Assembly: GCA_026004495.1 (NCBI GenBank)
Contig: BPJG01000001.1
Location: 350,858 to 414,857, forward strand
From: Candidatus Parcubacteria bacterium
Lineage (GTDB): Bacteria > Patescibacteriota > Minisyncoccia > UBA6257 > HR35
Length of the DNA: 64,000 nt
Reading direction: 5' to 3'
The notes under the pieces: model-generated
Seen by the model: only the letters and a program-made list of their open reading frames with translations
Told to the model about the DNA's origin: nothing
Database searches by the model: none
Translations under genes and position numbers: made by a program
In this document: piece by piece, positions 1,404-47,775 of the stretch
Layout of the letters: each line of letters begins with the position of its first letter
How positions within the stretch are numbered: the first letter of the stretch is position 1

Positions 1404-1411
1404 TTTTATAT

Positions 1412-5774: not shown

Positions 5775-6112
5775 GGGGATGAATTGGATTTCGAGGCGGA
5801 AAAGAGATAAAGAAGGCTAACGGTAAAAGCCCGCCTTAGTGGTTATAAAAAGTGCAAACCAACCTCTTGCCTACGCTGTTAGTTAAAGTAGGGCTCTGGA
5901 GAAAGTTTGTTGGATTCTTTCTTCAGGGTGATAAATAATCCAACTTGAATTAAAGAAGTTGACTAGCTTCTTTAATTGACACCAATAATAGTCTATCTCC
6001 AATTCATTTTGTAGGTTTTAAAGAATTGGGGTGAAAATTAAAAAAACCTACTATGTTAGTAGAATTCTTTATCAATTTTCCGTCGACGGGGGTTCGATTC
6101 CCCCCATCTCCA
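5775..6112 (+). ncRNA. ssrA: tmRNA (ssrA), standard one-piece form
   Basis: The 5' end GGGGATGAATTGGATTTCGAGGCGG and the 3' end GGGGGTTCGATTCCCCCCATCTCCA give a tRNA-Ala-like acceptor/T-arm with a G3:U70 pair. A candidate tag ORF runs from GCA at 5854 to TAA at 5884-5886 and would encode ANQPLAYAVS. It is adjacent to smpB, and no CCA is encoded. Confidence 0.8.
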
Positions 6113-6144
6113 AATTTATTTTGGAGTTTTAATTTTAAATTATT

Positions 6145-8145: not shown

Positions 8146-11100
8146 ATGTACAATCTAATATTTTATTAAATTCTTTAATAGTATTTACTCCCATAATACC
8201 TGTTGGTTTTTTAACTTTAAGGTATAATCTTTGAAACTTCTTTACTGAATTAATTGTTCTAATATTATATTTAGTTATTTCTTTATTTTTTGAACCAGGG
8301 CCAGTTTTAGCGATTAAAGTTTTATTATTTGAATTTAATATAATCTGGAGATATTTAATATTATTATTAGTAATTCCTGGTCTTATCTTTTTAAGGGGAA
8401 ATCTAAAATTACTTGGTATTTTTGATTTAATATAATCAAAATCAAAATCTTTATATTTAATGCATATATTATCCTCTTGAGTTTTTTCAAACTCTTCTGA
8501 ACTGGTAGTTGTTTGTAAATTTTGAGCTAAAAGATTTAATAATAAAAGTAAGTTATTTTGTTCTTGGTTTGCAGTTTCTCCATCTTCACCATCTCCACCA
8601 CTACCTCCACCACCTCCACTACTACCACCTCCACCACCTCCACTACTACTACTATCATTGTCAACAATATTAACATTAACATTACTTATTTGAATATTAT
8701 TATAGTTATTGTCTGTTGAAGAAGCAGAATGGCTAATAACTACACTATGATTACCTTCAGCTATACTATCATTAACTGCAGTTACATTAATAGTTTGATT
8801 AATATTCCAATTAGTTGGAGTAAAGACTAAGGTAGAAGTATTAGTTTGAATTTGAGACGAATTATAGGTTAACCTAATTATTACATTACTTGTTGGAGCT
8901 GAAGTTAACCTAAGATTGTAACTACTACCCTCTCCTCCTTCAGTAACAGTGATACTTGTTGGATTAACACTTACTCCACTACTATCATTATCAACAATAT
9001 TAACATTAACATTACTTATTTGAATATTATTATAGTTATTGTCTGTTGAAGAAGCAGAATGGCTAATAACTACAGTATGATTACCTTCAGCTATACTATC
9101 ATTAACTGCAGTTACATTAATAGTTTGATTAATATTCCAATTAGTTGGAGTAAAGACTAAGGTAGAAGTATTAGTTTGAATTTGAGACGAATTATAGGTT
9201 AACCTAATTATTACATTACTTGTTGGAGCTGAAGTTAACCTAAGATTGTAACTACTACCCTCTCCTCCTTCAGTAACAGTGATACTTGTTGGATTAACAC
9301 TTACTCCATTACTATCATTATCAACAATATTAACATTAACATTACTTATTTGAATATTATTATAGTTATTGTCTGTTGAAGAAGCAGAATGGCTAATAAC
9401 TACAGTATGATTACCTTCAGCTATACTATCATTAACTGCAGTTACATTAATAGTTTGATTAATATTCCAATTAGTTGGAGTAAAGACTAAGGTAGAAGTA
9501 TTAGTTTGAATTTGAGACGAATTATAGGTTAACCTAATTATTACATTACTTGTTGGAGCTGAAGTTAACCTAAGATTGTAACTACTACCCTCTCCTCCTT
9601 CAGTAACAGTGATACTTGTTGGATTAACACTTACTCCATTACTATCATTATCAACAATATTAACATTAACATTACTTATTTGAATATTATTATAGTTATT
9701 GTCTGTTGAAGAAGCAGAATGGCTAATAACTACAGTATGATTACCTTCAGCTATACTATCATTAACTGCAGTTACATTAATAGTTTGATTAATATTCCAA
9801 TTAGTTGGAGTAAAGACTAAGGTAGAAGTATTAGTTTGAATTTGAGACGAATTATAGGTTAACCTAATTATTACATTACTTGTTGGAGCTGAAGTTAACC
9901 TAAGATTGTAACTACTACCCTCTCCTCCTTCAGTAACAGTGATACTTGTTGGATTAACACTTACTCCATTACTATCATTATCAACAATATTAACATTAAC
10001 ATTACTTATTTGAATATTATTATAGTTATTGTCTGTTGAAGAAGCAGAATGGCTAATAACTACAGTATGATTACCTTCAGCTATACTATCATTAACTGCA
10101 GTTACATTAATAGTTTGATTAATATTCCAATTAGTTGGAGTAAAGACTAAGGTAGAAGTATTAGTTTGAATTTGAGACGAATTATAGGTTAACCTAATTA
10201 TTACATTACTTGTTGGAGCTGAAGTTAACCTAAGATTGTAACTACTACCCTCTCCTCCTTCAGTAACAGTGATACTTGTTGGATTAACACTTACTCCAGG
10301 ATTATTACTTATTCCTGTAGGATTATAATCAAAAAAGACCAAGTTCTTATTTGAAAAATCATAGTTATTTATCGAACCGTAGGATATGCTTTCAAAATTT
10401 CCTCCTAAATATAATTTTCTTGAGCTAGTACTAAAAGCTATTGAATAAATATTAAAATCTGGGAAAATTGCATCATAAGTAAAATTTATTTCTGAGGGCG
10501 TGTAGGTGGCAATTAAAAATCCTAATTGACCCCTGGTGTAAAGTTCATCAAAAAATCCTGAAACAAAAAGTATATTATTTTGACTATCATTTTTAATTTT
10601 AATTACAGGTAAATTTGGATATTCCATATAATTTAAATTTACTGGTGAAAGATTATTTTTATTTAAAGTGGCTAAATATTTATTAAATTTACCACCAACG
10701 AACAATAGATTATCTTCTGGATCTATGCTAATCGTATTAACTAAATCATTTATATTGGATTGAGCTAATAATATAGGACTAGAGGTTGCTCCTATAGAAG
10801 CCAAATAAGAAACATTTTGATTTAATACTCTATTAAATCTGCCGCCAATATATAAAACTCCAGTTGATTCATCAATAACACAATCATTAACTACATCATT
10901 AACAATACCGCTATTTCCATTTATAAAATTATTATCTAAAGTACCAGAACTAGCATTTATTTTTGCTACATATTTATATTTATTCTCATTATTTATTTTA
11001 GAAAAATAGCCACATAAAAATAGTTTATTATTAATCTTATCTAACGTTAAGGCTGAGATAAAATCTCCTGTTGTTGTTGAAAAGGTATAGTTGAAATCAT

Positions 11101-12640
11101 TTATTATGGTATTATTAGTGGTATTAATTGCTGCAAAAAATATTCTATCTTGGTTATTAATTTTTGTAAATGGTCCAGCTATGTATAAATAATTATTATT
11201 AGGGTTATAAAGAAGAACATCAACTGGGTTATTTGGTTCAATATTAAAATTAGTAATTAAGTTTAAATTTCTATCAAAGGCAGCCAAATATTTTTTATAA
11301 ACTCCATTATAGGAATAAAATCTCCCACCAATAAATAAATTACCATTATTATCTAATTTCAAAACATTAACTCTATCGCTTAGTTTTAAATCAGAAATAG
11401 AGGTTATTAAATTTCCAGAGGTTGCATTGATAGCTCTGAAATAATACCTATCACTTGCACTTGTGGCATTAAATGATCCACTAACATATAAGATTCCATT
11501 ATTTTTGTTTAAAGCTAAAGATAGAACTGAATCAACATCAGAATTGTCTCGATTTAGCGAAGAAGAAAATGTATTTATCATCGAACCATTTATAGCATTA
11601 AGGGCAGCAACATAAACAGAAGGAGTAGCAAACCTTCCGCCTATATATAAATAATCATCATTAGGGTTATTAGGGGTATTAAAGTCATTATATTCTAAAG
11701 CCAAAACAACATAATCTAATGAATTGCCAGCTGGATTAAAGCCAGTTATTATACTACCATTTGTTGAAGAAACAGCAGCTAAATATCTTTTAGGTGAAGT
11801 AAAATAACCTCCTACATATAATATATTAGAATCAGGAGATAATAAAATAGTCCAAATGACATCATTAAATGAATTATTGGAATTAAAACTTTCATTTACT
11901 GTTGAGGTTGAATTAGTTGAAAAATTTATAGCAGCTAAAAATTTTTTATTGGAAATAATATTGGTTAAATTATTTTTTATCCAGATAAATTGTCCTCCAA
12001 GATATAAAGTATTAGTATTAGGATGAACTGCTAAAGAAAATACGTAGTCCTCTAGTTCAAAATTAAAGGTATTAACTAAGCGGGGATTATTTAAATCAGA
12101 AATATCAATAGCTGATAAATACTTTCTTGTTAAATTATTTACTGACTGGAATGCTCCTCCAATAAAAAGAATATTATTTTTTAAAGCTAAAGCGTAAACA
12201 GTATCATCAATATTTAAGTTAAAATTACAATTTACTCTTCCTGATTGATCTATATAGGCTAATTTTCTTACCTCACAATTACCTACTTTGAAAAAATCAC
12301 CACCAATAAACCAACCATTGTTATATGGTATAGCTGTCCAAACAGAACCTTCTATTTTATCAATTAAATCAAAAGTTGTATTCTGAGATGTTCTTAAAAT
12401 AAATCCATTTCCCCTATAAGGACCTAAATAAGTAAAATTACCTCCTATATAAACTTTATCATTAGCAACTTCAATAGTATTTATTGAACCGTTAGGCACC
12501 CAATTTAAATTAAACTTTTGAGAAGTTAAATTAGCCCAAGTTAAATTAAATAAAAATATATTAAATAAAAAGAAAATAAAAATCATTATAAAAAACTTCG
12601 TTAAATTTTTTAATTTATTTAAAAATTTTTTTAATTTCAT
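8138..12640 (-). CDS. Giant cell-wall-anchored surface protein: signal peptide, beta-propeller (delta-60-like) repeats, 5 x 110-aa tandem Ig-like repeats, Gly/Ser linker, C-terminal peptidoglycan-binding domain
   Basis: 1500 aa. The N-terminal signal is MKLKKFLNKLKNLTKFFIMIFIFFLF. About 12 recurrences of LY[IV]GG[xF]F over residues 60-700 (LYLGGQF, LYVGGYF, LYIGGRF, LFIGGRF and others) indicate beta-propeller blades. Five perfect 110-aa repeats follow (GVSVNPTSITVTEGGEGSSYNLRL...VTAVNDSIAEGNHTVVISHSA...), then a poly-Gly/Ser linker. The C-terminal ~90 aa match the PG_binding_1 pattern (IKYLQIILN...TGPGS...TKYNIRTINSVKKFQ...TGIMGVNTIKEF). Confidence 0.8.
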   Translation of the reverse strand: MKLKKFLNKLKNLTKFFIMIFIFFLFNIFLFNLTWANLTSQKFNLNWVPNGSINTIEVANDKVYIGGNFTYLGPYRGNGFILRTSQNTTFDLIDKIEGSVWTAIPYNNGWFIGGDFFKVGNCEVRKLAYIDQSGRVNCNFNLNIDDTVYALALKNNILFIGGAFQSVNNLTRKYLSAIDISDLNNPRLVNTFNFELEDYVFSLAVHPNTNTLYLGGQFIWIKNNLTNIISNKKFLAAINFSTNSTSTVNESFNSNNSFNDVIWTILLSPDSNILYVGGYFTSPKRYLAAVSSTNGSIITGFNPAGNSLDYVVLALEYNDFNTPNNPNDDYLYIGGRFATPSVYVAALNAINGSMINTFSSSLNRDNSDVDSVLSLALNKNNGILYVSGSFNATSASDRYYFRAINATSGNLITSISDLKLSDRVNVLKLDNNGNLFIGGRFYSYNGVYKKYLAAFDRNLNLITNFNIEPNNPVDVLLYNPNNNYLYIAGPFTKINNQDRIFFAAINTTNNTIINDFNYTFSTTTGDFISALTLDKINNKLFLCGYFSKINNENKYKYVAKINASSGTLDNNFINGNSGIVNDVVNDCVIDESTGVLYIGGRFNRVLNQNVSYLASIGATSSPILLAQSNINDLVNTISIDPEDNLLFVGGKFNKYLATLNKNNLSPVNLNYMEYPNLPVIKIKNDSQNNILFVSGFFDELYTRGQLGFLIATYTPSEINFTYDAIFPDFNIYSIAFSTSSRKLYLGGNFESISYGSINNYDFSNKNLVFFDYNPTGISNNPGVSVNPTSITVTEGGEGSSYNLRLTSAPTSNVIIRLTYNSSQIQTNTSTLVFTPTNWNINQTINVTAVNDSIAEGNHTVVISHSASSTDNNYNNIQISNVNVNIVDNDSNGVSVNPTSITVTEGGEGSSYNLRLTSAPTSNVIIRLTYNSSQIQTNTSTLVFTPTNWNINQTINVTAVNDSIAEGNHTVVISHSASSTDNNYNNIQISNVNVNIVDNDSNGVSVNPTSITVTEGGEGSSYNLRLTSAPTSNVIIRLTYNSSQIQTNTSTLVFTPTNWNINQTINVTAVNDSIAEGNHTVVISHSASSTDNNYNNIQISNVNVNIVDNDSNGVSVNPTSITVTEGGEGSSYNLRLTSAPTSNVIIRLTYNSSQIQTNTSTLVFTPTNWNINQTINVTAVNDSIAEGNHTVVISHSASSTDNNYNNIQISNVNVNIVDNDSSGVSVNPTSITVTEGGEGSSYNLRLTSAPTSNVIIRLTYNSSQIQTNTSTLVFTPTNWNINQTINVTAVNDSIAEGNHSVVISHSASSTDNNYNNIQISNVNVNIVDNDSSSSGGGGGGSSGGGGGSGGDGEDGETANQEQNNLLLLLNLLAQNLQTTTSSEEFEKTQEDNICIKYKDFDFDYIKSKIPSNFRFPLKKIRPGITNNNIKYLQIILNSNNKTLIAKTGPGSKNKEITKYNIRTINSVKKFQRLYLKVKKPTGIMGVNTIKEFNKILDCTFE
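8648..10297 (-). repeat. Five head-to-tail tandem repeats of 330 bp inside the giant surface-protein gene
   Basis: The 10-mer tcaacaatat recurs at 8661, 8991, 9321, 9651 and 9981 within long identical blocks, giving an exact period of 330 bp. Copies differ at only a few positions (for example ccact versus ccatt). Confidence 0.9.
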
Positions 12641-14454: not shown

Positions 14455-14570
14455 GCCTTGCGGTACCTACTCTCGCGCCTAAATTGGCACTACCATCGGC
14501 ACTTAGCCGTTTCACTTGCCTGTTCGGAATGGAAAGGAGTGGTTCCAGCTAAGTTATGCAACCACAAGGC
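14455..14570 (-). rRNA. rrf: 5S ribosomal RNA
   Basis: The reverse complement reads GCCTTGTGG...CCGAACAGGCAAGTGAAACGGCTAAGTGCCGATGGTAGTG...GCGAGAGTAGGTACCGCAAGGC. Universal 5S loop motifs (CCGAAC, GTGAAAC, CCGATGGTAGTG, GAGAGTAGG) are present and the helix I termini pair. Length is about 116 nt. Confidence 0.85.
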
Positions 14571-17295: not shown

Positions 17296-18744
17296 ATGAC
17301 CAAAAATATTTTTATAACAATACTATTTATTTTTCTTTATATTTCTTCTATTTATGCTCAGAATCAAATTCCTATGTGTGCTGCCCCAAATCATCTTATT
17401 ATTTGGCCGAATATGTCGACTTATACCATTCCAATGGCTAAAAATAATATTGGTGAATTAATGGATTCATATTTAACTTATTCAACAGATTCAGTATATT
17501 ATAATGGGCAATTTAAAGAACAAATAGGAATATTTAGTTTTTTTAGGTCGGCAGTTAGAATTTATGGCGGATTAGGGCAAGATAGAAATCGACCTAATCC
17601 TAATAATAACTATAAAACTAATTGGAGTAATGTTGCTGACTTTTATTTAACCCCTATTTATATTAAAGGACCAAGAAGAAATTGGCATTCAGGAGGTTCA
17701 ATTACCTTTATGGATATTTCAACATCAACCGATAAGAAATATCAAACCTTAATTACATTAACTCAATTTCCTAGTCATGTATATTGGAATCCAGTCGGAG
17801 ATGATAATAGTTTAACAACAACTCCTGATTTTGGCAATTTAAGAATTTATTACTCTGAATTTAATCCAACTAATGCTACCCTTACTGGAAGAACAGGAAC
17901 TATTAGTCCTAACTCATCCAATTATAAATTATTAGCAACCTTTAAATATGATAGTCAAAGAGGAAGTATGCTGGGTATCGGAACAGCAAGCCCTCAAGCT
18001 AATTTATATGTTAATGGTAATATTCTTTCTTCAGCAACTATTACTGCTCCAGGATTTTGTTTAGGTAATAATTGTATTAGTCAATGGCCTTCAGGAGGAA
18101 ATATAGGTAGTGGAACTGCAAATTATCTTCCAATTTGGAAAACTTCAACAACCCTAGGAACTTCAACTATTTATCAAGCAGCAAATGGTAATGTTGGTAT
18201 CGGAACAATAACTCCAACTTCTATTCTTCATCTTTATGGTAACTCAGCTTCTAGAGTGATGAGCATAATTATCCAAGATACTAATAACCCATATCAAAAA
18301 ATTTGGAAATTAGGAAATGATGGTCAACCAGGTAAATTTGGACTTATTGATGGAACAAATTATAGATGGATAGTAGATAGCAATGGTAATGTTGGTATCG
18401 GAACAACAAATCCTCAAGCTAAATTACATGTTAATGGTAATATTATTCTTTCTTCAGAAACTTCGCCTTATTTTGAGATTAATAGAATATCAACAAATAA
18501 CGAATCTGGAATAAGATTTAAGTCAAATAATCAGACTGCTTGGGAAATTGAATTGGCTAGTGGCAGTGGTAATTATTTAGTAATTAGTAAAGCAAATAAT
18601 GAACCTGTTATTGCCTTAGATAATATAGGTAGGGTTCATATAGGAAGTTATGTAAGTGGCGATGGAAAGCTTAATGTTTATGGAACCTCTAAATTCTATT
18701 CTTTTGATGGGCAGAGATTAACTTTAGAAATAAGTGAAGAATAA
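17296..18744 (+). CDS. Secreted protein with internal tail-fibre-like repeats (NVGIGTxxPxAxLHVNGNI)
   Basis: 482 aa with an N-terminal signal peptide (ILFIFLYISSIYAQN). The motif recurs at least three times (GIGTASPQANLYVNGNIL, NVGIGTITPTSILHLYGN, NVGIGTTNPQAKLHVNGNII). Confidence 0.55.
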   Translation: MTKNIFITILFIFLYISSIYAQNQIPMCAAPNHLIIWPNMSTYTIPMAKNNIGELMDSYLTYSTDSVYYNGQFKEQIGIFSFFRSAVRIYGGLGQDRNRPNPNNNYKTNWSNVADFYLTPIYIKGPRRNWHSGGSITFMDISTSTDKKYQTLITLTQFPSHVYWNPVGDDNSLTTTPDFGNLRIYYSEFNPTNATLTGRTGTISPNSSNYKLLATFKYDSQRGSMLGIGTASPQANLYVNGNILSSATITAPGFCLGNNCISQWPSGGNIGSGTANYLPIWKTSTTLGTSTIYQAANGNVGIGTITPTSILHLYGNSASRVMSIIIQDTNNPYQKIWKLGNDGQPGKFGLIDGTNYRWIVDSNGNVGIGTTNPQAKLHVNGNIILSSETSPYFEINRISTNNESGIRFKSNNQTAWEIELASGSGNYLVISKANNEPVIALDNIGRVHIGSYVSGDGKLNVYGTSKFYSFDGQRLTLEISEE

Positions 18745-18746
18745 AT

Positions 18747-19454
18747 ATGAATCATAGGTATAAAAATATTTTAAAATTTACATTCATTATTATTTTATTA
18801 AGTTTATTTTTCTTTGTATCAAATTATTTATATTCTCAAGTTCAAAGAGAAGCTACTGTTTTTAGAACTCAAAATAGAGGATTTAATTTTTATACAGGGA
18901 ATGATCCTATACTAAAAATTTCTCGAAATAACTTTATTTTTTATTGGGGCAGAGATTCTCTTCCTTTATTACGATTAAACGATGTTAGATTGTTTTCGCT
19001 TATTGGCTTTGTTTATATACCAACTGTTGGGTTTGAAAATGGAAGATTAACACCTAGATGTCCTTGTGATATAAATGACTTAGTTAGAGATTGTCCTGTG
19101 CCTTATATTTCAAATTATAGAGTCTCAAACACCTGTTTTGATCAATATTATCAAATTTATAATTCTGAATATCGATCAGTAAGGTATAATTTAGAAAGAG
19201 TGGCTGACTGGGATAGATTTCAATTTGCTGTTGATAATGGTGTGGTAAGGATAAATGGTGATCTTGATGTTGAATATAATCAAAATAATAGTTGTGTAAA
19301 TGTACCATCAAATGAATTTAGGGATATTGAAGGTTCTCATAATCAAGGAGAAACCATTTGCCCGGATGGATATTTTATGAAGGGAATTAGATTTCAAAAT
19401 GGAAGAAGACAAGATGCATTAGATCTGTGGCAAATAATATGTTGCAAGCTATAA
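18747..19454 (+). CDS. Cys-rich membrane-anchored or secreted hypothetical protein
   Basis: 235 aa with an N-terminal TM/signal segment and at least 9 Cys including a terminal ICCKL. It immediately follows and is probably co-transcribed with the repeat protein. Confidence 0.45.
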   Translation: MNHRYKNILKFTFIIILLSLFFFVSNYLYSQVQREATVFRTQNRGFNFYTGNDPILKISRNNFIFYWGRDSLPLLRLNDVRLFSLIGFVYIPTVGFENGRLTPRCPCDINDLVRDCPVPYISNYRVSNTCFDQYYQIYNSEYRSVRYNLERVADWDRFQFAVDNGVVRINGDLDVEYNQNNSCVNVPSNEFRDIEGSHNQGETICPDGYFMKGIRFQNGRRQDALDLWQIICCKL

Positions 19455-22725: not shown

Positions 22726-22932
22726 ATGAAAAAAGAAATTGTTGAAGGTGTAGTTATTGAAAATTTACCAGATACTACATTTAAGGTTAGGCTGTCAACA
22801 GGACAAGAGATTTTTGCTTATTTATCAGGAAAAATGAGGATTAATTATATAAAAATAGTTCCTGGAGATGAAGTTATTATTGAATTATCTCCTTATGATA
22901 AATCTAAGGGAAGAATAATTAAAAGAAAATAA
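22726..22932 (+). CDS. infA: Translation initiation factor IF-1
   Basis: 68-aa S1-like OB-fold protein. GVVIENLPDTTFKVRL...GKMRINYIKIVPGDEV...SPYDKSKGRII matches the IF-1 consensus. Confidence 0.9.
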   Translation: MKKEIVEGVVIENLPDTTFKVRLSTGQEIFAYLSGKMRINYIKIVPGDEVIIELSPYDKSKGRIIKRK

Positions 22933-22947
22933 AATATTCTAAAAAAA

Positions 22948-23061
22948 ATGAAAGTTACAACATCAGTTAAAAAAAGATGTAATAAATGTAAAATTGTTAG
23001 AAGAAATAAAAGAATTTATATTATTTGTGAAAATAAAAAACACAAACAAAGACAAGGATAA
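22948..23061 (+). CDS. rpmJ: 50S ribosomal protein L36
   Basis: This 37-aa ORF, absent from the supplied ORF track, reads [37 protein letters not shown] and matches the L36 zinc-ribbon consensus. It lies in infA-rpmJ-rpsM order. Confidence 0.85.
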
Positions 23062-23894: not shown

Positions 23895-24512
23895 ATGAAA
23901 ATTGAAGCTAAATGTAAAATTTGCAGAAAATTAGGCCAAAAGTTACTTTGGAATGAAAGATGTATGTCAGGTAAATGTTCTTTAAGTAGAAGAAGAATTA
24001 AACCGGGAATTCATGGTTACAAACCTAGATCTTTATCAGACTTTGCTAAGCAATTAATTGAAAAACAGAAATTGAAAAATTACTATCTTCTTAAAGAAAA
24101 GCAATTAAAAAATTTTATCGATAAGGCTAAAAAAAATAAAGAACCACTTCCTCTATCTTTAATTAAAATTTTAGAAAGTAAATTTGATAATTTTGTTTGG
24201 AGGTCTGGTTATAGCTTATCCAAGCTACAATCTAGACAGCTAATTACTCATGGTCATTTTTTAATAAATGATAAAAAAATAAATTTACCTAATTATTTAC
24301 TTAAGCCAGGTGATATAATAAAAATTCGCGAAGAAAGTAAAAAATTATCCATCTTTAGAGATATTGATAAAAAATTAAAGAATTCCCAAATTCCTTCTTG
24401 GATTAAATTCAATTTTAATGATTTAAGCGCAGAATTTATTCGTTATCCTGAATTAGAGGAAATTAATCTACCATTTAATTTATCAATCGCTCTTCAATTT
24501 TATGGCAAATAA
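23895..24512 (+). CDS. rpsD: 30S ribosomal protein S4
   Basis: 205 aa with an N-terminal Zn-ribbon-like CKICRK...C...C and the S4 RNA-binding domain (LQSRQLITHGHFLINDKKINLPNYLLKPGDII). Confidence 0.85.
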   Translation: MKIEAKCKICRKLGQKLLWNERCMSGKCSLSRRRIKPGIHGYKPRSLSDFAKQLIEKQKLKNYYLLKEKQLKNFIDKAKKNKEPLPLSLIKILESKFDNFVWRSGYSLSKLQSRQLITHGHFLINDKKINLPNYLLKPGDIIKIREESKKLSIFRDIDKKLKNSQIPSWIKFNFNDLSAEFIRYPELEEINLPFNLSIALQFYGK

Positions 24513-24541: not shown

Positions 24542-25246
24542 ATGATAAAAGAAATTATTATTCCTGATAACATTAAAATAATCTCTTTAGAAAATAATAA
24601 GGGAATTTTTGAATTATTTCCTCTTTATCCTGGTTATGGAATTACAATTGGTAATGCCTTGCGTAGAGTTTTACTTTCTTCAATTAAGGGATCAGCTATT
24701 ACAATGGTTAAAATTGAGGGTGTACCTCATGAATTTTCAACTGTCCCGGGTGTTTTAGAAGATATAATAGATATAATTTTAAGACTAAAGCATGTAAGGA
24801 TAAAATACGAAGGAGAAACAGCCATTGAATTAGAATTATCCAAAAAAGGTAAGGGTGAGGTATTAACTAAAGATATAAAATGCCCTCCAGGAGTGAAAAT
24901 TATAAATGAAGATTTTTTAATAGCAACACTAACATCTAATGAGACTGAATTAAAAATGAAATTGATTGTCGAAAGAGGTTATGGATATTACGTTGCTGAA
25001 GATAGAGAAAAAAGATTGGAAAGAGTTGATCCAGGTTTTATATTTTTAGATGCTATTTTTTCTCCCATTGTTAATGTAACTTATGAAGTTGAAAATATAG
25101 TTTACAAAGAAAGGACTGATTATAACTTACTAAGATTGATCATAGAAACAGATGGAACAATTGAACCAGTAGATGCCCTTAAACAAGCCTTAGAAGTCTT
25201 AATTAAACATTTTAATTTTATTTATGAAACATTTGGTAAAAACTAA
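24542..25246 (+). CDS. rpoA: DNA-directed RNA polymerase alpha subunit, N-terminal (dimerisation/assembly) domain only
   Basis: The 234-aa protein aligns to the alpha NTD (ITIGNALRRVLLSSIKGSAITMVKIEGVPHEFSTVPGVLEDI). It stops where the E. coli alpha would continue into the linker and CTD, and rplQ begins inside its 3' end. Confidence 0.8.
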   Translation: MIKEIIIPDNIKIISLENNKGIFELFPLYPGYGITIGNALRRVLLSSIKGSAITMVKIEGVPHEFSTVPGVLEDIIDIILRLKHVRIKYEGETAIELELSKKGKGEVLTKDIKCPPGVKIINEDFLIATLTSNETELKMKLIVERGYGYYVAEDREKRLERVDPGFIFLDAIFSPIVNVTYEVENIVYKERTDYNLLRLIIETDGTIEPVDALKQALEVLIKHFNFIYETFGKN

Positions 25247-25574
25247 AAATTTTCATAGAAAAAGAGATCAAAGAAATGCTTTGATGAAAATATTAGCTCA
25301 TAATTTAATTATGAAGGAAAGAATAAAAACAACAACCGCAAGAGCCAAATATTTAAGAAAAATTGTTGAAAAATTAATAACCAAAGCTAAAAAACAAGAT
25401 TTAAGTGTTTTGAGACTATTAATAAAAAAATTACCTAAAAAATCTGCTTATAAACTTTTTTATGAAATAGCTCCTCGTTATAAAGAAAGAAATGGAGGAT
25501 ATTTAAGAGTAATTAAATTGCCATTAAAAAGATTAAAAGATAACGCGGAATTAAGTATTATTGAATTTGTTTAA
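25224..25574 (+). CDS. rplQ: 50S ribosomal protein L17
   Basis: The L17 core is present (HRKR...ALMKILAHNLIMKERIKTTTARAKYLRKIVEKLIT). The true start may lie a few codons inside the 25224 ORF. Confidence 0.8.
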   Translation: MKHLVKTKNFHRKRDQRNALMKILAHNLIMKERIKTTTARAKYLRKIVEKLITKAKKQDLSVLRLLIKKLPKKSAYKLFYEIAPRYKERNGGYLRVIKLPLKRLKDNAELSIIEFV

Positions 25575-25858
25575 TGTTAGTTATTAGATTTCAACCCGTA
25601 GGTAAAAAACATCAAAAAATTTTTAGAATAGTTCTTCAAGATAAGAAAAGTAAGCTATCGGGAAAAATTATTGAAAAACTTGGCTGGTGGGATCCTCGGC
25701 TTAAAAAAGGAGACTTCAAGGCTGATTTGATAAAATTTTATATTTCTAATGGAGCACAAGTTTCTGATAGTGTTTGGAATTTATTAATAAAGAAAGCTAT
25801 TATTAAGGGCAAAAAAAGACCTATATCAATTAAAAATAAAAGAAATGAAAACACCTAA
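25574..25858 (+). CDS. rpsP: 30S ribosomal protein S16
   Basis: 94 aa reading MLVIRFQPVGKKHQKIFRIVLQDKKSKLSGKIIEKLGWWDPR, which matches the S16 family. Confidence 0.85.
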   Translation: MLVIRFQPVGKKHQKIFRIVLQDKKSKLSGKIIEKLGWWDPRLKKGDFKADLIKFYISNGAQVSDSVWNLLIKKAIIKGKKRPISIKNKRNENT

Positions 25859-27440: not shown

Positions 27441-28700
27441 TTAATAAACAAAAATTTTATTAACTATTAAATTATTATCGTCATAAAGTTTTATTTCGTC
27501 ATACCTTTGTTTAGAAAAAGATTCATAAATGGGTATAAAAATTATCCAGTCCTTAAAATAAAAATCATTATCATTTTTTTTATTTTGATAGCAACCTCGA
27601 TAAGTAAAGTTTTCCTCAAAAAATTTATAACATTGCGAATCATAGATAATTTTTTCCCAGTCAGTATTTTTAGGCCCACTACAAGATATTTTAGATAGAA
27701 TATTTAAGCAATTATCACTTAAATTATATTTTGTTTTTAAAGAAAATAAATCAAATTTTGTAAATCTATTACAAGGAAAGTAATATTGCCTTAGATAATC
27801 TTTTAGTTCCCATCTTAATTGAGTTAAGTAATTAAAGCATTTATTAATTTTAAAATTAAAACCCAAAGGAGATTCAAGGGGATAAGGATATTTAAAGTTT
27901 GGGGGAATAAAATTCGCAGTGGTAGCGTATAGGGGATAGATAATTATTCTTTCGTTTGGTTTTAAGATAATATCTTCAAGTTTTTTATCTAAATTAGGAT
28001 TTACATCTTTAACTGCCTGAGTTATAGTAAAATTAACCTTTGAAGATATAAGCTTCCAATTAGTGACATTAATTGAATTCCTACTTTTATTGGTAAGAGT
28101 TATTAAATTTCTAGCACTATTTATTTTAATATCAATATCTTTATAGTAATTGGAAATAGAAACCATAATATAAGCAATAGCTGGAGTTGGATCAATTTCA
28201 TTTTTTTTATTAATAGCCCTAACATAAAGTTTATAAGTGTTTAATCCTTTAGGTAGAAATATCTTTTTATGCTTACCATAAATAATTTGCCAATTTTTAT
28301 TAAGGGGCTCGATTTTATATTGAAAGAAAATTTTTTCCGAAGGATTTTTTTTATCTATACCCGATACCAATAAATCAAATAAATTATCTTCTATAAATGA
28401 AAATATTTTGGGCGAAATTAAAAATGTCTCTATATCGGCATTGTTTTTATAATAATTCTTTTTTTTTGTTTGGGCATAAATATATTTTGTTTTTAAAAAT
28501 GGAATTTTATTTTCTTTTTTTTGTTTAAAAAATGTTCCTTCAGGTAAAATACTCTTTTCAGCTGGAGAAACATCTTTTTTTATTTTTAATTGAGGGATGT
28601 AGTTTAATCTAAATTGAAGATAGTATATTATACCTGATAAAGTTAAAAGAATAATAATTATAGCTTGAATTAAACTTTCTAATTGAGCTTTATTTTTCAT
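27441..28700 (-). CDS. Membrane-anchored hypothetical protein with a probable lamin-tail-domain (LTD)-like segment and a Cys-rich C-terminal region
   Basis: 419 aa with an N-terminal TM helix. The segment IKINSARNLITLTNKSRNSINVTNWKLISSKVNFTI...LKPNERIIIYP resembles the LTD pattern (ExVxLxN...GWxL...pgxxvvv). The C-terminal third has 8 Cys. Confidence 0.4.
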   Translation of the reverse strand: MKNKAQLESLIQAIIIILLTLSGIIYYLQFRLNYIPQLKIKKDVSPAEKSILPEGTFFKQKKENKIPFLKTKYIYAQTKKKNYYKNNADIETFLISPKIFSFIEDNLFDLLVSGIDKKNPSEKIFFQYKIEPLNKNWQIIYGKHKKIFLPKGLNTYKLYVRAINKKNEIDPTPAIAYIMVSISNYYKDIDIKINSARNLITLTNKSRNSINVTNWKLISSKVNFTITQAVKDVNPNLDKKLEDIILKPNERIIIYPLYATTANFIPPNFKYPYPLESPLGFNFKINKCFNYLTQLRWELKDYLRQYYFPCNRFTKFDLFSLKTKYNLSDNCLNILSKISCSGPKNTDWEKIIYDSQCYKFFEENFTYRGCYQNKKNDNDFYFKDWIIFIPIYESFSKQRYDEIKLYDDNNLIVNKIFVY

Positions 28701-28855: not shown

Positions 28856-30025
28856 ATGATTAATATTAAACAATTCCAAAATTTCATAGATGAAATAAGC
28901 GAAGAAAAAGATTTAAGCGAAGATGATGTTAAGGAGGCTATTTTAACTGCTTTAGCTGCTGCCTATAAAAAAGATTATTGTAATAAAGAAGAGAAAGTAG
29001 AAAGCAAATTAGATCCAACTGGAAGATGGGTTGAATTTTATTTAGTTAAAACTGTTATTGATGATAATCCCCCTCAGTTTAATAATTATAAAAATATTAA
29101 GATTTCTGAAGCTATTAAAATAAATCCCTCGATTAAAGTTGGTGATGAAATTAGAATTCCTTTAGAGATAAAAGAAAATTTTAGTCGAGTAGCAACTCAA
29201 ACTGCCAAACAAGTTATTATTCAAAAACTAAGAGAAATAAATAAAGAAAAAACCTATGAAGAATTTAAAAATAAAGAAGGAAAAATAGTTTCTGGTGCTA
29301 TTCAAAAAGTAGATCCTAATATTATTTATGTTGATTTAGGCAAGACTATTGGTTATATGTTTAAAAATGAGACTATACCTGGAGAGTTTTATCGAATTGG
29401 TAATAGGATGAGGTTTTATGTTTATGCAGTTGAAAAAACATCAAAGGGCGTAGAAATTTATCTTTCACGTTCTCACCCTCTATTTCTTAACTCACTTTTT
29501 ACCTTCGAAATTTCCGAAATATCTGAAGGCCAGATAGAAATTAAAAATGTTGTAAGGTTACCAGGAATAAGATCAAAAATTGCAGTTAAATCAAAAGTTA
29601 ACAATTTAGACCCAGTAGGAACATGTATTGGCCCTAAGGGTGCTAGAGTTTTAAATATCTCTAATGAACTTAATGGAGAAAAAATTGATATTATTCTTTA
29701 TTCAGATGACCCTGTTCAATATGTCATTAATGCTCTTTCTCCCGCTAAAATTATCAGTTCAGAGATATTACCTCAAAGGACTATTAAAGTTTATGTTAGC
29801 GAAGATCAATTACCAATTGTTTTGGGTCGTAATGGTATTAATATTAAATTAGCATCAAAATTAACAGGCTGGAAAATTGATGTTCGCTTAATCGAAGAAC
29901 CAGAAAGAGAAATTGAAGGTGGAGTTGTTGATGCAGAAAGTGATGAAAATATTAAAACTTTTGATGATGATAATAAAATTGAGGATAACAAATTAGAAAA
30001 TTTAAATGAAAGGGGTCAAAATTAA
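28856..30025 (+). CDS. nusA: Transcription termination/antitermination factor NusA
   Basis: Contains the NusA N-domain, an S1 domain and two KH domains (GPKGARVLNISNELNGEKIDII; VLGRNGINIKLASKLTGWKIDV). Confidence 0.85.
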   Translation: MINIKQFQNFIDEISEEKDLSEDDVKEAILTALAAAYKKDYCNKEEKVESKLDPTGRWVEFYLVKTVIDDNPPQFNNYKNIKISEAIKINPSIKVGDEIRIPLEIKENFSRVATQTAKQVIIQKLREINKEKTYEEFKNKEGKIVSGAIQKVDPNIIYVDLGKTIGYMFKNETIPGEFYRIGNRMRFYVYAVEKTSKGVEIYLSRSHPLFLNSLFTFEISEISEGQIEIKNVVRLPGIRSKIAVKSKVNNLDPVGTCIGPKGARVLNISNELNGEKIDIILYSDDPVQYVINALSPAKIISSEILPQRTIKVYVSEDQLPIVLGRNGINIKLASKLTGWKIDVRLIEEPEREIEGGVVDAESDENIKTFDDDNKIEDNKLENLNERGQN

Positions 30026-30040
30026 TTTTAATTTAAAAAT

Positions 30041-30520
30041 ATGGAGTTAGAAGTTTTTATAGAAATTTCAAAAAATAGTTCCGTTAAATACGAATTTGAT
30101 AAAGAAAAAAATATATTGAAAGTAGATAGATTTTTGTATACTGCAATGTTTTTTCCTTTCAATTATGGTTTTATTGTTGATACCCAGGGAGAAGATGGAG
30201 ACCCTGTTGATGCTTTAATTTTATCTGAATTTTCAATTTTACCCGGAAGTTTAATTAAATGTCAACCAATCGGAGGTTTAGAGATGGAAGATGAGTCAGG
30301 TAATGATGAAAAAATAATTGTTGTCCCCTTAGATAAAATTGATCCATTTTGGTCTAAATATAAAAGTATTAATCAATTAGAAGAAAGTTATAAAAATAAA
30401 ATTAGACATTTCTTTGAAAATTATAAAACTCTTGAACCTAATAAATGGGTAAAGATAAATAATTGGTTTGATTATGATAAAGCTGTTGAAATTATTAAAA
30501 AATCTCTTATTAAAAAATGA
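30041..30520 (+). CDS. ppa: Inorganic pyrophosphatase (family I)
   Basis: 159 aa with the family I signature DGDPVDALIL and conserved acidic residues. Confidence 0.85.
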   Translation: MELEVFIEISKNSSVKYEFDKEKNILKVDRFLYTAMFFPFNYGFIVDTQGEDGDPVDALILSEFSILPGSLIKCQPIGGLEMEDESGNDEKIIVVPLDKIDPFWSKYKSINQLEESYKNKIRHFFENYKTLEPNKWVKINNWFDYDKAVEIIKKSLIKK

Positions 30521-33500
30521 TTAATTTTCATAAAATTGAAGAAAAAATATTGAAATTTTGGAAAGCTCATAATATTTTCGAGAAAAGTGTTGAGGCTAAT
30601 AAAATGAATAAACCATTTGTTTTTTTAGATGGGCCTCCATTTGCTAATAATAAACCTCATATAGGACATTTTTTAACTAGAATTTATAAAGATATAATTT
30701 TGAGGTTTAAAACAATGACTGGTTATTATGTTGAAAGAAGGGCAGGTTGGGATACCCATGGTTTACCAATAGAAATTGCTACTGAAAAATCCTTAGGTTT
30801 TTCTAGTAAAAAAGAAATTTTAAGTTATGGTATTGAAAAATTTAATCAAAAATGTAAAGAATTGGTTATGAAATATAAAGATCAGTGGGAGTATTTTGAT
30901 GAAATAAGTGGTTTTTGGATAGATCATCAAAGAGCTTATATTACTTATGATCCTTATTATATGGAAAGTTGTTGGTGGATAATTAAAAAAATATATGATC
31001 AAGGATTTTTAAAAGAAGAATATAAAGTTTTTCCCTATTGTCCCAGATGTGAAACTGTTCTTTCTCAAGCTGAAGTTGGTCAAGTAGATGCTTATAAAAA
31101 AATTAAAGATCCTGATTTATATGTTAAATTTAAATTAAAAAACAGACAAAATGAATATTTTTTGGTTTGGACCACTACTCCATGGACTTTAATTTCTAAT
31201 TTAGCTTTAGCAATTAATCCAGAATTTGATTATAGTTTATACGAAATCGAAGATAAAAAATATTGGGCAATAGAAGGAATTGAAAAAAAACTTGAATTAA
31301 TGTCTAAAAAAAATATAAGACTAATAACGACCACAAAGGGAGAGAACCTTATTGGCTTAGAATATGAACCACTCTTTAAGTTGGTAAAATTAGAAAATTA
31401 CGATAATTGCTATAAGGTTTATCCAGCTGATTTTATTAGTAAAGAAGAAGGAACAGGAATTGTTCATATAGCCCCAGCATTTGGTGAAGAAGATTTTGAA
31501 TTAGGTAAAAAATATAATTTACCCATATTTAATCCTATTGATACTAATGGACGATTTAACTCAGATGAACCTCAGCCAATTATTGATGATATCAATAATC
31601 TTTTCTTTAAAGAAGCTAACTCATTAATTATTAATTATTTGAATAATCTAAATCTAATTTTTTACTATGATTTAGAAGGATATGAACATGATTATCCTCA
31701 TTGTTGGCGTTGTAAGGAGCCATTAATTTATTATAGTACTAAAAATTGGGTGATTAAAGTATCAAAGTTTAATAAAAGATTAATAGAATTAAATAAAAAA
31801 ATTAATTGGGTATCTCCAGAAATAAGTAATCGTTTTTTTGAATGGTTAAAAGAAGGGAAAGATTGGAATTTATCTCGTAATCGTTTCTGGGGAATACCCT
31901 TGCCTATTTGGAGATGTGAAACTTGCGGTTCTATAGAGGTTATTTCAAGTTTAAAAGAATTGGGAAATAAATTCAAATCTAAAAATAATTATTATTTTTT
32001 AAGGCACGCTGAAGCATATAGTAACCTCAAGGGTATATTATCTTCTTATCCTGAATTATTTTTCAATCCCCTAACTTACAAGGGCATTAAGCAAGTAAAC
32101 TCTCTTGTTAATAAAATAAAAAATTTAAATATTGATTTGATAATAACTTCTCCACTTTTAAGAGCTAAACAAACAGCAGAAATAATTGCTCGAAAATTAA
32201 ATTTGCCTGTTTTGATTAATTTTGACTTAAGAGAAATTGATTTTGGAAATTTTAATGGTAAATCAGAAAAAGAATATCAAAATTTAATTAAAGATCAATT
32301 TCAAGAATATTTTGTTAAACCTACAGATGGAGAAAATTTAATTGAAGTTAAAAGAAGAATGATTAAAGTTATTTTAGATTTAGAAGAAAGATATGATAAT
32401 AAGAATTTTTTGATAATTTCCCATCAAGATCCCCTTTGGACCCTATTTGGAGAAATGCAAGGATTATCTATTGAACAAACTATTAATACTAAAGAATTTA
32501 TTCTTAAATTAGGTGATCTTAAAAAGGTAGAATTTTTAATTTTGCCTCGTGATGAAGAGGGAGAAATAAATATTCATCGACCCTATGTTGATAATTTTAT
32601 TTGGAAATGCAAGTGTGGTGGTTTTAAAAAAAGAGTTGAAGATGTAATTGATATTTGGTTTGATTCTGGCAGTGCGACCTTTTCTTCTGTCCATTATCCC
32701 TTTGAAAATAAAAAAGAAATTGACGAAGGGAAAAAATTCCCAGTAGATTTTATTGTTGAAGGCGTTGATCAAACCCGTGGATGGTTTTATACTCTATTAA
32801 CTGTAGGTTACTTAGTAAAAAAAGAAATATCTTATCGTAATGTAGTTTCATTAGGTTTAGTTTTAGATAAGAATGGAAGGAAAATGTCTAAATCTTTAGG
32901 TAATACTATTGATCCATTTGAGGCAATCGAAAACTGGGGTAGTGATCTTTTAAGATTTTATTTTTGTTATGTTAATGAATCGGCTGATAATAAAAAATTT
33001 GACGAGAAGTCATTATCCAGCTTAAGAAATAATTATTTCAATATAATTTTAAATATCTTAAATTTTTATCGAATGTATAATGATCCAAATAAAATAAGAA
33101 TTACAAAAAGCAATTATTTATTAGATAAATGGTTTGATATAAGGTTTAGGTTAGCTTACTATAATATTTTTAATTATTTAGATAATTATAATCTTAATAA
33201 AGCAAGCAGAGAGCTTGTTGATTTAGTTGATGATTTCTCTCGTTGGTGGCTAAGAAGAAGTAGAAATAGGTTTCAAAGGCCAAAGAATAAACTTGAAAAA
33301 AATATTGCTCTCTCTAAATTAGAAGATTATCTTTTAAATTTAGCAATTATTTCTGCGCCCCTTAATCCTTTTTTTAGTGAATATCTTTATCAAGAAATGA
33401 AAAATGAAATTAAAGATAAAAGAAAGGGTAAATTAAGTGTTCATTTAGAAAAATTAAATCTACCTCAAAAAATTTCAACTAAAGAATATGAAATTTTAGA

Positions 33501-34011
33501 GAAAATGAAAGAAATAAGAGAAATTACTTCAATAATTTTGATGATGAGAAAATCAAATAACCTTAAAATAAGACAACCCCTTAATGATGTTTATATAGCC
33601 AAAAAAATACCTGTAGAATTTTTAGATATTATTAAAGAAGAAGTTAATGTTAAAAATATTTATCTTGGAGAACCACATAATAAAGAAAATTATTTGATAA
33701 CAGATAAACCAGTAAATATTTATTTAAACAAATTAATAACACCTCAACTTAAAGAGGAGGGTATAACTAATGATTTTATTAGATATTTGCAGGATTTAAG
33801 ACAAGACTTAGGATTAATACCAGCTAAAAAAGTGAACGTCCATTTGATTATTAATAACAATAATTTAAAAAAAATAATTTTTCGAAATATCAATAAAATC
33901 CAAAGAGAAACTAACACTAAAATATTTTTTAATAAATCCAAAAAATTTAAATTAGAAAGGGATTTTAATTATGATAATTTTGGTAAGGTAATTATTTTTG
34001 TTGATTTTTGA
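30517..34011 (+). CDS. ileS: Isoleucyl-tRNA synthetase (type 2-like) carrying an inserted histidine-phosphatase domain
   Basis: HIGH motif (PPFANNKPHIGH), an IleS-like N-terminal core (WDTHGLPIE), a CP1/editing region, the WRCETCGS zinc-binding segment, WFDSGS, and KMSKS (GRKMSKSLGN). Between the zinc-binding segment and WFDSGS lies a block of about 190 aa with phosphoglycerate-mutase-family motifs. Confidence 0.85.
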   Translation: MINFHKIEEKILKFWKAHNIFEKSVEANKMNKPFVFLDGPPFANNKPHIGHFLTRIYKDIILRFKTMTGYYVERRAGWDTHGLPIEIATEKSLGFSSKKEILSYGIEKFNQKCKELVMKYKDQWEYFDEISGFWIDHQRAYITYDPYYMESCWWIIKKIYDQGFLKEEYKVFPYCPRCETVLSQAEVGQVDAYKKIKDPDLYVKFKLKNRQNEYFLVWTTTPWTLISNLALAINPEFDYSLYEIEDKKYWAIEGIEKKLELMSKKNIRLITTTKGENLIGLEYEPLFKLVKLENYDNCYKVYPADFISKEEGTGIVHIAPAFGEEDFELGKKYNLPIFNPIDTNGRFNSDEPQPIIDDINNLFFKEANSLIINYLNNLNLIFYYDLEGYEHDYPHCWRCKEPLIYYSTKNWVIKVSKFNKRLIELNKKINWVSPEISNRFFEWLKEGKDWNLSRNRFWGIPLPIWRCETCGSIEVISSLKELGNKFKSKNNYYFLRHAEAYSNLKGILSSYPELFFNPLTYKGIKQVNSLVNKIKNLNIDLIITSPLLRAKQTAEIIARKLNLPVLINFDLREIDFGNFNGKSEKEYQNLIKDQFQEYFVKPTDGENLIEVKRRMIKVILDLEERYDNKNFLIISHQDPLWTLFGEMQGLSIEQTINTKEFILKLGDLKKVEFLILPRDEEGEINIHRPYVDNFIWKCKCGGFKKRVEDVIDIWFDSGSATFSSVHYPFENKKEIDEGKKFPVDFIVEGVDQTRGWFYTLLTVGYLVKKEISYRNVVSLGLVLDKNGRKMSKSLGNTIDPFEAIENWGSDLLRFYFCYVNESADNKKFDEKSLSSLRNNYFNIILNILNFYRMYNDPNKIRITKSNYLLDKWFDIRFRLAYYNIFNYLDNYNLNKASRELVDLVDDFSRWWLRRSRNRFQRPKNKLEKNIALSKLEDYLLNLAIISAPLNPFFSEYLYQEMKNEIKDKRKGKLSVHLEKLNLPQKISTKEYEILEKMKEIREITSIILMMRKSNNLKIRQPLNDVYIAKKIPVEFLDIIKEEVNVKNIYLGEPHNKENYLITDKPVNIYLNKLITPQLKEEGITNDFIRYLQDLRQDLGLIPAKKVNVHLIINNNNLKKIIFRNINKIQRETNTKIFFNKSKKFKLERDFNYDNFGKVIIFVDF
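31975..32545 (+). other. Embedded histidine phosphatase (PGAM/His_Phos_1-like) domain within IleS
   Basis: YFLRHAEA corresponds to the RHG catalytic His motif. LTYKGIKQ, IITSPLLRAKQTAEIIA (the SPLxRAxxTA motif) and LIISHQDPL (the second catalytic His) follow in the canonical order and spacing of branch-1 histidine phosphatases. The IleS sequence resumes in frame after it. Confidence 0.7.
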
Positions 34012-37594: not shown

Positions 37595-37921
37595 ATGTTA
37601 AATATTTCAGAAATAAAAAATAATCTTTTAAAAGAAAGAGAAGAAATTATCTTTATTTTAGAAAGCTTAGAAAAGGAGATGAAAAATATTAAAGAAAGAC
37701 AAGAATATGAATTTTCTGATACCTCAGAAAGCTTTGAGGAAAAGCAAGATATTCATATAAAAAAAGAATTTTTAGAATCAAGATTAAATTTAATTAATAA
37801 AGCTCTAGAGAGAATTAATAATAATACCTTTGGCTTATGCTTAAAATGTGGTAAACCTATTGAAGAAATTAGATTAAAAATAGATCCCACTTTTGAATAT
37901 TGTCGCGAGCACTCAAATTAA
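37595..37921 (+). CDS. DksA/TraR-family C4 zinc-finger protein
   Basis: 108 aa with an N-terminal coiled-coil-like region and a C-terminal CLKCGKPIEEIRLKIDPTFEYCREH (CxxC-x17-CxxH-like) motif characteristic of TraR/DksA. Confidence 0.6.
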   Translation: MLNISEIKNNLLKEREEIIFILESLEKEMKNIKERQEYEFSDTSESFEEKQDIHIKKEFLESRLNLINKALERINNNTFGLCLKCGKPIEEIRLKIDPTFEYCREHSN

Positions 37922-44875: not shown

Positions 44876-45565
44876 CTATCCTTGAGGATAAAAATTAGTA
44901 CTTGTTGATCCAGGCAAAAGTGTTTTGTCTGGTCCTGATTCATAAATATAGGGATTATTACCTCCATCATTTTGTTCTTCTGTTAATCTACCCTCAAGAT
45001 TAGCATTCAATTCATAACTCATCTCTGGTGATTTGCAGGTAAAAGCATAATAAAAAGATCCTGAAAGATTACTATTTCTTGGATCTAAGGGTAAGCTTGT
45101 TAAATTAATATATGTTGATGTTCCTATTGGAACAGGTAACCAACCTGGCGGATTGTTTGTTGTACTAGTAGCTGTAGTTATTGAATTAGTAGCTCTTGCT
45201 CCTGTAAATGGAGAGGTGGTACCAATAGATCCTGTTTCATTAGCTGAATAAAAAATTGTTGGAGTTGAACCACCAAGACATCCTCCATTAAAACTATTTA
45301 TTGTTCCACCAGTATTTAAAGTTGTACTTGAAGGAACAAATACTATATCTGTTCCTTTTTGGGTTATATCGGCGATATATAAATCAATCGCCCTGCTTAA
45401 ATTATTTAAATCAGCAATACGACGACTATCTCTCATGTTGACAAAAATTTGTTGAGGCTTAATAATAGTTATCAAAATTGCTGCTAGTGTAGCTATTATT
45501 GCTAAAACAATTATTAATTCAATTAAAGTAAATCCTATTTTTTTATCTTTGTAATTAATATGCAT
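44876..45565 (-). CDS. Type IV pilin (prepilin with class III signal), Thr/Ser/Gly-rich C-terminal region
   Basis: The N-terminus is MHINYKDKKIG|FTLIELIIVLAIIATLAAILI. It has a basic leader, Gly at -1, Phe at +1, Glu at +5 and a hydrophobic alpha-1 helix. Confidence 0.8.
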   Translation of the reverse strand: MHINYKDKKIGFTLIELIIVLAIIATLAAILITIIKPQQIFVNMRDSRRIADLNNLSRAIDLYIADITQKGTDIVFVPSSTTLNTGGTINSFNGGCLGGSTPTIFYSANETGSIGTTSPFTGARATNSITTATSTTNNPPGWLPVPIGTSTYINLTSLPLDPRNSNLSGSFYYAFTCKSPEMSYELNANLEGRLTEEQNDGGNNPYIYESGPDKTLLPGSTSTNFYPQG

Positions 45566-46112: not shown

Positions 46113-46261
46113 TAATATTTTCTATTAAATCAAGCAATTAAAATAAAAAATTTTCTAATTAAACATTTAATATTCATTAAAGGTTGTTCATTAAAAGGTT
46201 TTTTATTATCCGGGTTAAGTTCAGCTATTTAAAGAATTATTTTTTCTTATTTTAAATAGAA

Positions 46262-47775
<1,514 letters not shown>

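Follow-up and report, generated by a model that had tools for sequence, protein, structure and literature searches.

The rpoA gene of the window (the whole stretch of DNA that was analysed, 64 kb in length) codes for a genuine bacterial-type RNA polymerase (RNAP) alpha subunit that comprises a complete N-terminal domain (NTD) and nothing else. With a probability that we put at roughly 85%, it is the functional and canonical rpoA of a Parcubacteria lineage (Minisyncoccia, Paceibacter-like), whose enzyme would be assembled on NTD-only alpha subunits, would recognize promoters through sigma alone and would have lost the contacts made by the C-terminal domain (alphaCTD). The alphaCTD, on which UP-element promoter strength and class I activation depend, is commonly regarded as universal to bacterial RNAP.

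The rpoA Gene and Its Product

The gene starts with ATG and yields an alpha subunit of 234 aa in the ORF listing. It had been predicted from the DNA that this product covers only the NTD, and the Pfam scan bears this out. RNA_pol_L (PF01193, E=3e-21) spans aa 27-224 and profile positions 2-74 of 74, the Rpb3/RpoA insert domain RNA_pol_A_bac (PF01000, E=9.5e-31) spans aa 56-174 and profile positions 1-119 of 119, and RNA_pol_A_CTD (PF03118) is absent from the product even at E<=1. Residues 5-224 match residues 8-228 of Escherichia coli alpha, which is the span of the crystallised alphaNTD fragment 1BDF, with about 37% identity over the aligned NTD, and a sequence search of a structure set matched solved bacterial alphas at E=1e-41 to 6e-51 over residues 5-228. 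In pairwise alignment, the final NTD helix corresponds to about E. coli residue 233 and is followed by five more residues (TFGKN), which places the C-terminus at about E. coli residue 238; taken broadly, the protein stops about 5-10 residues past that helix. The protein ends in ...HFNFIYETFGKN, with no linker and no basic cluster; the tail past the last helix is YETFGKN, with a net charge of 0.

The motif GNALRRVLLSS (GNALRR(V/I)LLSS), which we take to be the beta-binding motif around E. coli R45, is kept, and the equivalents of E. coli R44/R45, L48, and K86 are conserved. The NTD alone reaches the NCBIfam equivalog TIGR02027 for rpoA (232.9 bits vs. a cutoff of 227.8, profile 2-210 of 298) and misses NF003519 (263.7 vs. 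277). The protein is 100% identical to KatS3mg094_367 of the Parcubacteria metagenome-assembled genome (MAG) KatS3mg094, in which it lies on a contig of 634,165 bp and is labelled only "hypothetical protein". The loss of the CTD explains why such genes barely clear annotation thresholds and why the window copy was given that name.

Operon Neighbourhood and the Overlap with rplQ

The gene lies in its canonical slot in rpsM-rpsK-rpsD-rpoA-rplQ, and the gene order is identical across the loci L001-L014. The surrounding features are as follows:

22726-22932 (+): infA (IF-1), an ORF with a syntenic gene (PF01176) in L013 and L014; first of infA-rpmJ-rpsM-rpsK-rpsD-rpoA-rplQ
22948-23061 (+): rpmJ (L36, 37 aa), from its translation; syntenic gene (PF00444) in L013 and L014
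23064-23447 (+): rpsM (S13), an ORF with a syntenic gene (PF00416) in L013 and L014
23452-23886 (+): rpsK (S11), an ORF matching S11 of related loci (PF00411 in syntenic loci)
23895-24512 (+): rpsD (S4; PF00163 and PF01479), directly upstream of rpoA as in the canonical alpha operon
24542-25246 (+): rpoA, NTD-only; dimerisation domain plus Rpb3/RpoA insert domain, 234 aa
25224-25246 (+): rpoA/rplQ overlap of 23 nt, with the rplQ start codon inside the rpoA 3' end
25224-25574 (+): rplQ (L17), full length (PF01196, profile 1-97 of 97, E=1.5e-29)
25574-25858 (+): rpsP (S16; PF00886), right after rplQ

The original prediction had also held that rplQ begins within the 3' end of rpoA and thus leaves no room for a linker and a CTD, and this is what the overlap and the full-length L17 show. 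Since the L17 profile is matched from end to end, the start at 25224 is correct and there is no spare DNA; the N-terminus of the product (MKH...) also aligns with the usual L17 start. A frameshift or a hidden CTD frame at 25200-25260, another point raised at the outset, was ruled out: across 25100-25600, one frame holds the rpoA stop, the +1 frame is intact L17, the third is riddled with stops, and none encodes a CTD. Because full-length rplQ starts 23 nt inside rpoA, no indel could fuse a linker and a CTD to the gene.

L001 and L014 share the 23-nt overlap, and L002-L004 have one of 17 nt. In relatives whose alpha is full length, the start of rplQ lies 9-29 nt past the rpoA stop, and in those in which a basic tail follows the NTD (the tailed class, described below), it lies 2-11 nt past the stop, so that the tailed rpoA genes are also complete. 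The 23-nt overlap marks a clean deletion of the linker, the CTD, and the intergenic spacer.

Conservation among Relatives

Alignment with homologues revealed that related genomes share the truncation. Among the best 120 clusters at 90% identity, 90 are 226-236 aa in length and lack PF03118, down to 53% identity; 17 others are 245-272 aa without PF03118, and 12 are 305-329 aa with it. Four GTDB representative genomes, each from a different study (L001-L004; under the names Candidatus Paceibacter, Pacebacteria, or Patescibacteria), have rpsK-rpsD-rpoA-rplQ with an rpoA of 230-232 aa at 64-76% identity. The sister MAG KatS3mg095 (GCA_026004515.1, BPJH01000001.1; L014) is syntenic over 20.7 kb and its rpoA is likewise 234 aa, while an ENA contig (L013) carries a 93%-identical copy and ends just past it. 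In all, the NTD-only rpoA occurs in six independent assemblies (L001-L004, L013, and L014) and the rplQ overlap in five of them (L001-L004 and L014). The dN/dS ratio of the window rpoA against four relatives is 0.089-0.143 by the Nei-Gojobori method, and the gene is under strong purifying selection.

Search for a CTD Elsewhere

A profile HMM was built from the CTDs of 12 full-length Parcubacteria relatives and E. coli. As a positive control, it detected the CTD in the full-length loci L005-L009 at E=1e-12 to 1e-21. With the --max option, its best match among 876 six-frame fragments of the window had an E-value of only 0.38, and it gave nothing at E<1 in loci of the NTD-only and tailed classes or in the 20.7 kb of KatS3mg095. 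PF03118 is absent from the Pfam-scanned window ORFs of at least 90 aa, and the few unscanned ones are covered by the six-frame search. The sole helix-hairpin-helix match of Pfam in the window is an HhH-GPD base-excision glycosylase. The search covered 64 kb of the 634-kb KatS3mg094 genome and 20.7 kb of its sister; a CTD-like ORF, which had been named as evidence against the prediction, was found in no frame of the former and nowhere in the latter.

Distribution and Phylogeny of CTD-Less Alpha Subunits

A second protein search covered 1.84 billion representatives at 50% identity, and its best 150 matches were considered. The short class is represented among these by a single sequence, P0044 (231 aa), which indicates that the NTD-only form is one fairly tight, Paceibacter-like lineage. 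Of the other 149 matches listed, 105 have a CTD and 44 do not; roughly 8-13 of the latter are fragments, internally deleted proteins, or read-through junk, and about 30 are genuine and tailed. The CTD is missing in about a quarter of the nearest alpha clusters, mostly polybasic-tailed ones. When both searches were pooled and cleaned, the resulting 253 sequences fell into the following classes:

CTD-bearing, full length: 113
NTD only: 90
Tail ending in a K-rich cluster: 30
RGRP[KR] motif: 10
Remaining short tails: 10

In a neighbour-joining tree of the NTD, the short class groups with the short-tailed P0095. The topology agrees with a single origin, yet the bootstrap values from this single 225-column protein alignment are weak (0.26 for the short class alone, 0.37 with P0095), and the tree was not taken to show one; that claim rests on the 50%-identity clustering. 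On the other hand, the tailed P0099 (260 aa) is nested in a full-length clade with bootstrap values of 0.91-1.00, and independent losses of the CTD near the short class are well supported. The window lineage is the extreme end of a recurrent reduction of alpha among Parcubacteria.

The NTD-only loci have a GC content of 25-30%, vs. 39-67% in tailed and full-length loci. AT-richness was considered as a driver of CTD loss and is unsupported: the short class is one lineage and hence one event, a FYMINK/GARP amino-acid proxy fails to separate the classes, and Carsonella is AT-rich yet keeps its CTD (PMC8321222).

Some unusual sequences were also met in these searches. Two clearly bacterial RpoA proteins, P0027 and P0102, are labelled Candidatus Aenigmatarchaeota and Pacearchaeota archaeon in NCBI and are probably from Patescibacteria contigs mis-binned into DPANN archaeal MAGs. 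P0122 (526 aa) is a single polypeptide with two diverged alphaNTDs (NTD-NTD-CTD) and P0153 (664 aa) one with the order NTD-CTD-like-NTD-CTD; each may represent a covalently fused alpha dimer. P0121 (569 aa), with a tandem double NTD, is probably an assembly artefact because its internal duplication is exact.

Polybasic and AT-Hook Tails of Relatives

In the tailed Parcubacteria alphas, the NTD is followed by an acidic or polar linker and then a basic cluster. The class was defined by a net charge of at least +4 over the last 12 aa, or by RGRP[KR], on an acidic linker; neither combination is found in the window RpoA. The last 12 residues of the tails have a median net charge of +6 (IQR +4 to +7), compared with a median of +1 for the most basic stretch of 12 residues in full-length linkers (Mann-Whitney p about 2e-14, for sequences that are phylogenetically non-independent). 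On these medians, the idea that the K-rich tails are leftover linker was ruled out.

At least 10 proteins (17 with close cluster members) carry P/K-K-K/R-R-G-R-P-K/R-K, for example KKRGRPKK, at the C-terminus. They are P0088, P0092, P0093, P0104, P0108, P0116, P0132, P0183, P0190, and P0201 (see also locus L011, 4001-4786), and they belong to five lineages with NTD distances of 0.6-0.8, the motif lying 7-11 residues from the C-terminus. Elsewhere in 283 sequences RGRP occurs 0 times, and about 0.004 occurrences are expected from tail composition. We take K-K/R-R-G-R-P-K/R-K to be the core of a canonical AT-hook, which binds A/T-rich DNA in the minor groove. The Pfam AT_hook model gave no match in the tailed proteins; since the motif is too short for HMM significance, the assignment as an AT-hook rests on the motif itself. 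The target of the alphaCTD in UP elements is also A/T-rich DNA, and the tail may be a minimal replacement for the contact of the alphaCTD with A/T-rich minor-groove DNA. In the literature searched, no paper linking AT-hooks with alpha was found.

Taken further, the CTD may have been lost repeatedly in Parcubacteria, several deep lineages having put a cheaper minor-groove reader, an AT-hook or polybasic tail on the acidic linker that was kept, in its place and the window lineage having taken the final step to an RNAP with no module for upstream DNA or activator docking. We hold this stepwise reading only tentatively and would give it slightly less than an even chance. If the alphas with AT-hook tails are functional, they would amount to a compact natural experiment on the purpose of the DNA contact of the alphaCTD.

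Predicted Consequences for Transcription

Two NTD-only alphas would dimerise and scaffold beta and beta', as in engineered E. coli alpha(1-235), and by this analogy the alpha2-beta-beta' enzyme is inferred to assemble on an NTD-only homodimer. The resulting core enzyme would be without flexibly tethered alphaCTDs, and promoters would be recognized through sigma alone. Since the biochemistry of E. coli alpha(1-235) shows the limits of an NTD-only alpha, UP-element recognition and alphaCTD-dependent activator contacts (class I and part of class II) would be gone in this lineage. The loss, a clean deletion of linker, CTD, and spacer, was fixed in the ancestor of one lineage. The alphaCTD is essential for E. 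coli viability, so its loss would imply a rewired promoter logic.

By Pfam, no DNA-binding transcription factor was found among about 60 window ORFs of at least 90 aa, a result in keeping with sparse regulation and with the minimal regulatory repertoire of the original prediction. In E. coli, the C-terminal acidic repeats of NusA bind the alphaCTD; the NusA of the window (28856-30025, +) consists of NTD-S1-KH-KH only, and these repeats are missing. The only regulatory candidates noted in the window were two: a stand-alone receiver domain at 45717-46112, and a 108-aa DksA/TraR-type zinc-finger protein at 37595-37921 (+) that falls below all NCBIfam cutoffs (DksA_like 56.7 vs. 105). The latter may act on RNAP through the secondary channel, as one of the few regulators aimed at RNAP that the window shows.

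Alternative Explanations

An artefact or decay (a frameshift from sequencing or assembly, a stop called in error, or a pseudogene) has in its favour that the gene comes from a MAG and is annotated only as hypothetical. However, the DNA 3' of rpoA is filled by intact rplQ, the NTD is complete end to end, and the same architecture recurs in six or more independent assemblies that different studies produced; because these assemblies agree and dN/dS is about 0.1, sequencing error, misassembly, and pseudogenisation are excluded for practical purposes, and we leave this explanation hardly any chance. A split or duplicated alpha, with the CTD free-standing or in a second full-length rpoA in the remaining ~570 kb, deserves somewhat more weight, although it too is very unlikely. 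The window is about 10% of the genome, bacteria with two different alphas exist (Francisella; PDB 6wmp), and the fused NTD-NTD-CTD alphas P0122 and P0153 attest to a plastic architecture in metagenomic bacteria. Against this stand the position of the short gene in the canonical operon slot under strong purifying selection, the failure to find a CTD in the 64 kb and the 20.7 kb, and the fact that KatS3mg094, 095, and 096 contribute one protein each to the best 120 clusters, all of them short. Moreover, sister lineages swapped the CTD for a tail in place, with no relocation, and a CTD without a tether would have no way to recruit RNAP.

It is also conceivable that the CTD is gone but its function is not, the upstream A/T-DNA contact or activator docking being provided by an extension of sigma, beta, or beta' or by a separate basic or AT-hook protein. 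In most CTD-less relatives, a tethered basic or AT-hook tail has been retained or gained, a pattern suggestive of selection for some contact with upstream DNA, and rpoB, rpoC, and rpoD lie outside the window. The window alpha itself, however, has no tail beyond the uncharged YETFGKN, and Pfam found nothing AT-hook- or CTD-like in the window ORFs, the helix-hairpin-helix match being the glycosylase. Such a substitution is improbable in our view, if the least so of the three. A functional NTD-only RpoA, in an enzyme that would find promoters through sigma alone, remains the preferred explanation.

Other Features of the Window

Several other features of the window were recorded. The isoleucyl-tRNA synthetase at 30517-34011 (+; TIGR00392, 817 bits in two stretches) has a histidine-phosphatase/phosphoglycerate-mutase-like insert (PF00300, E=2.6e-33, aa 493-655) between the halves of its catalytic domain, and this 1164-aa architecture is kept in KatS3mg095 (L014, 15947-19441). 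The 16S rRNA gene (46255-47777, -) is the source of a GC spike at 46-48 kb. The 5S rRNA gene (14455-14569, -) lies beside rps6-ssb, about 32 kb from the 16S, so that the rRNA genes are unlinked; a 23S rRNA gene was not found in the 64-kb window. The tmRNA (5775-6113) follows smpB.

A 1500-aa protein (8138-12640, -), possibly a surface protein, gave only weak Calx-beta/fn3-like repeat signals. ORFs without a Pfam match are found at 6145-8145 (-, 666 aa), 17296-18744 (+, 482 aa), 18747-19454 (+, 235 aa), and 27441-28700 (-, 419 aa), and KatS3mg095 (L014) has similar-sized Pfam-less ORFs at the positions of the 482-, 235-, and 419-aa ones. Two MreB paralogues, MreC, and a PBP2-type transpeptidase (54134-55138, 58911-59939, 59991-60722, and 61136-62929, all +) make up a full rod-shape module in this ultra-small-genome bacterium. 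In addition, type IV pilus/T2SS E and F genes for the ATPase and platform proteins lie at 156-3121 and a pilin-like N_methyl protein at 44876-45565.

Comparison with Known Systems

Hodgkinia and Tremblaya are proteobacteria that live as endosymbionts inside insect cells, and their genomes measure about 0.14-0.17 Mb. Their alphas "mostly retain the alpha-NTD" (PMC8321222) and are, like the window RpoA, naturally CTD-less alphas of highly reduced genomes, theirs having few or no transcription factors (PMC8321222). In contrast to the window NTD, which is fully intact in a genome of ~0.63 Mb, their NTDs are eroding, and some strains are without rpoA (PMC8321222). Since Carsonella and Nasuia, with more extreme genome reduction, keep the CTD (PMC8321222), CTD loss is no automatic outcome of genome reduction. 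An intact CTD-less alpha under purifying selection in an environmental, non-endosymbiotic lineage would mean that the CTD is dispensable in nature beyond insect endosymbionts, and the core enzyme of this lineage would be a natural minimal system in which to study promoter recognition by sigma alone.

For Parcubacteria, the only published statement found in the literature searched is one sentence of a 2021 paper, according to which CTD loss "is also present in Parcubacteria"; the sentence names microalgal chloroplasts too (PMC8321222). It makes the same claim for the same phylum-level group as the one made here. The reference behind that statement (Nelson & Stegen 2015; PMC4508563) is silent on RNA polymerase and the CTD throughout its text and lists rpoA solely among the core genes of a supplementary table; the claim is thus effectively undocumented in the literature searched. 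In that literature, on the alphaCTD and CPR/Patescibacteria, neither a distribution nor a lineage assignment, an analysis of selection, or a replacement by tails was found; a 2024 overview of Patescibacteria leaves RNA polymerase unmentioned, and a comparative study from 2025 still describes the alphaCTD as ubiquitous in Bacteria. Naturally CTD-less alphas and the phylum-level claim were known, therefore, and the lineage assignment, the evidence of selection, the recurrent losses, and the replacement by tails seem not to have been documented before. With regard to chloroplasts, Euglena rpoA is cited as lacking the alphaCTD (Sheveleva et al. 2002, via PMC8321222) and, as far as that citation goes, shares its absence with the window gene while being an organelle gene.

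The closest counterpart in domain content is E. coli alpha(1-235) (1BDF), with 235 vs. 234 residues. As cited in PMC8321222, it supports assembly and basal transcription and does not support UP-element or CRP class I activation (Igarashi & Ishihama 1991; Hayward et al. 1991). It is a laboratory truncation of a subunit whose CTD is needed in vivo, whereas the window form is natural, lineage-fixed, and under purifying selection. The tailed Parcubacteria alphas have likewise lost the folded CTD and have rplQ immediately 3'; unlike the window RpoA, they bear an acidic linker that ends in either a polybasic cluster or the AT-hook KKRGRPKK.

Archaeal Rpo3 (subunit D) and eukaryotic Rpb3/AC40 share the homologous platform of RNA_pol_L and the insert domain, without an alphaCTD, and the window RpoA gives a weak NCBIfam match to archaeal subunit D. 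It differs from Rpo3 in its TIGR02027 match, its ~37% identity to E. coli alpha, and its bacterial operon, and it presumably forms a homodimer rather than a D/L heterodimer. If the stepwise reading given above is true, the RNAP of this lineage would in its architecture be nearer to the Rpo3/Rpb3 platform than that of any other non-endosymbiotic bacterium.
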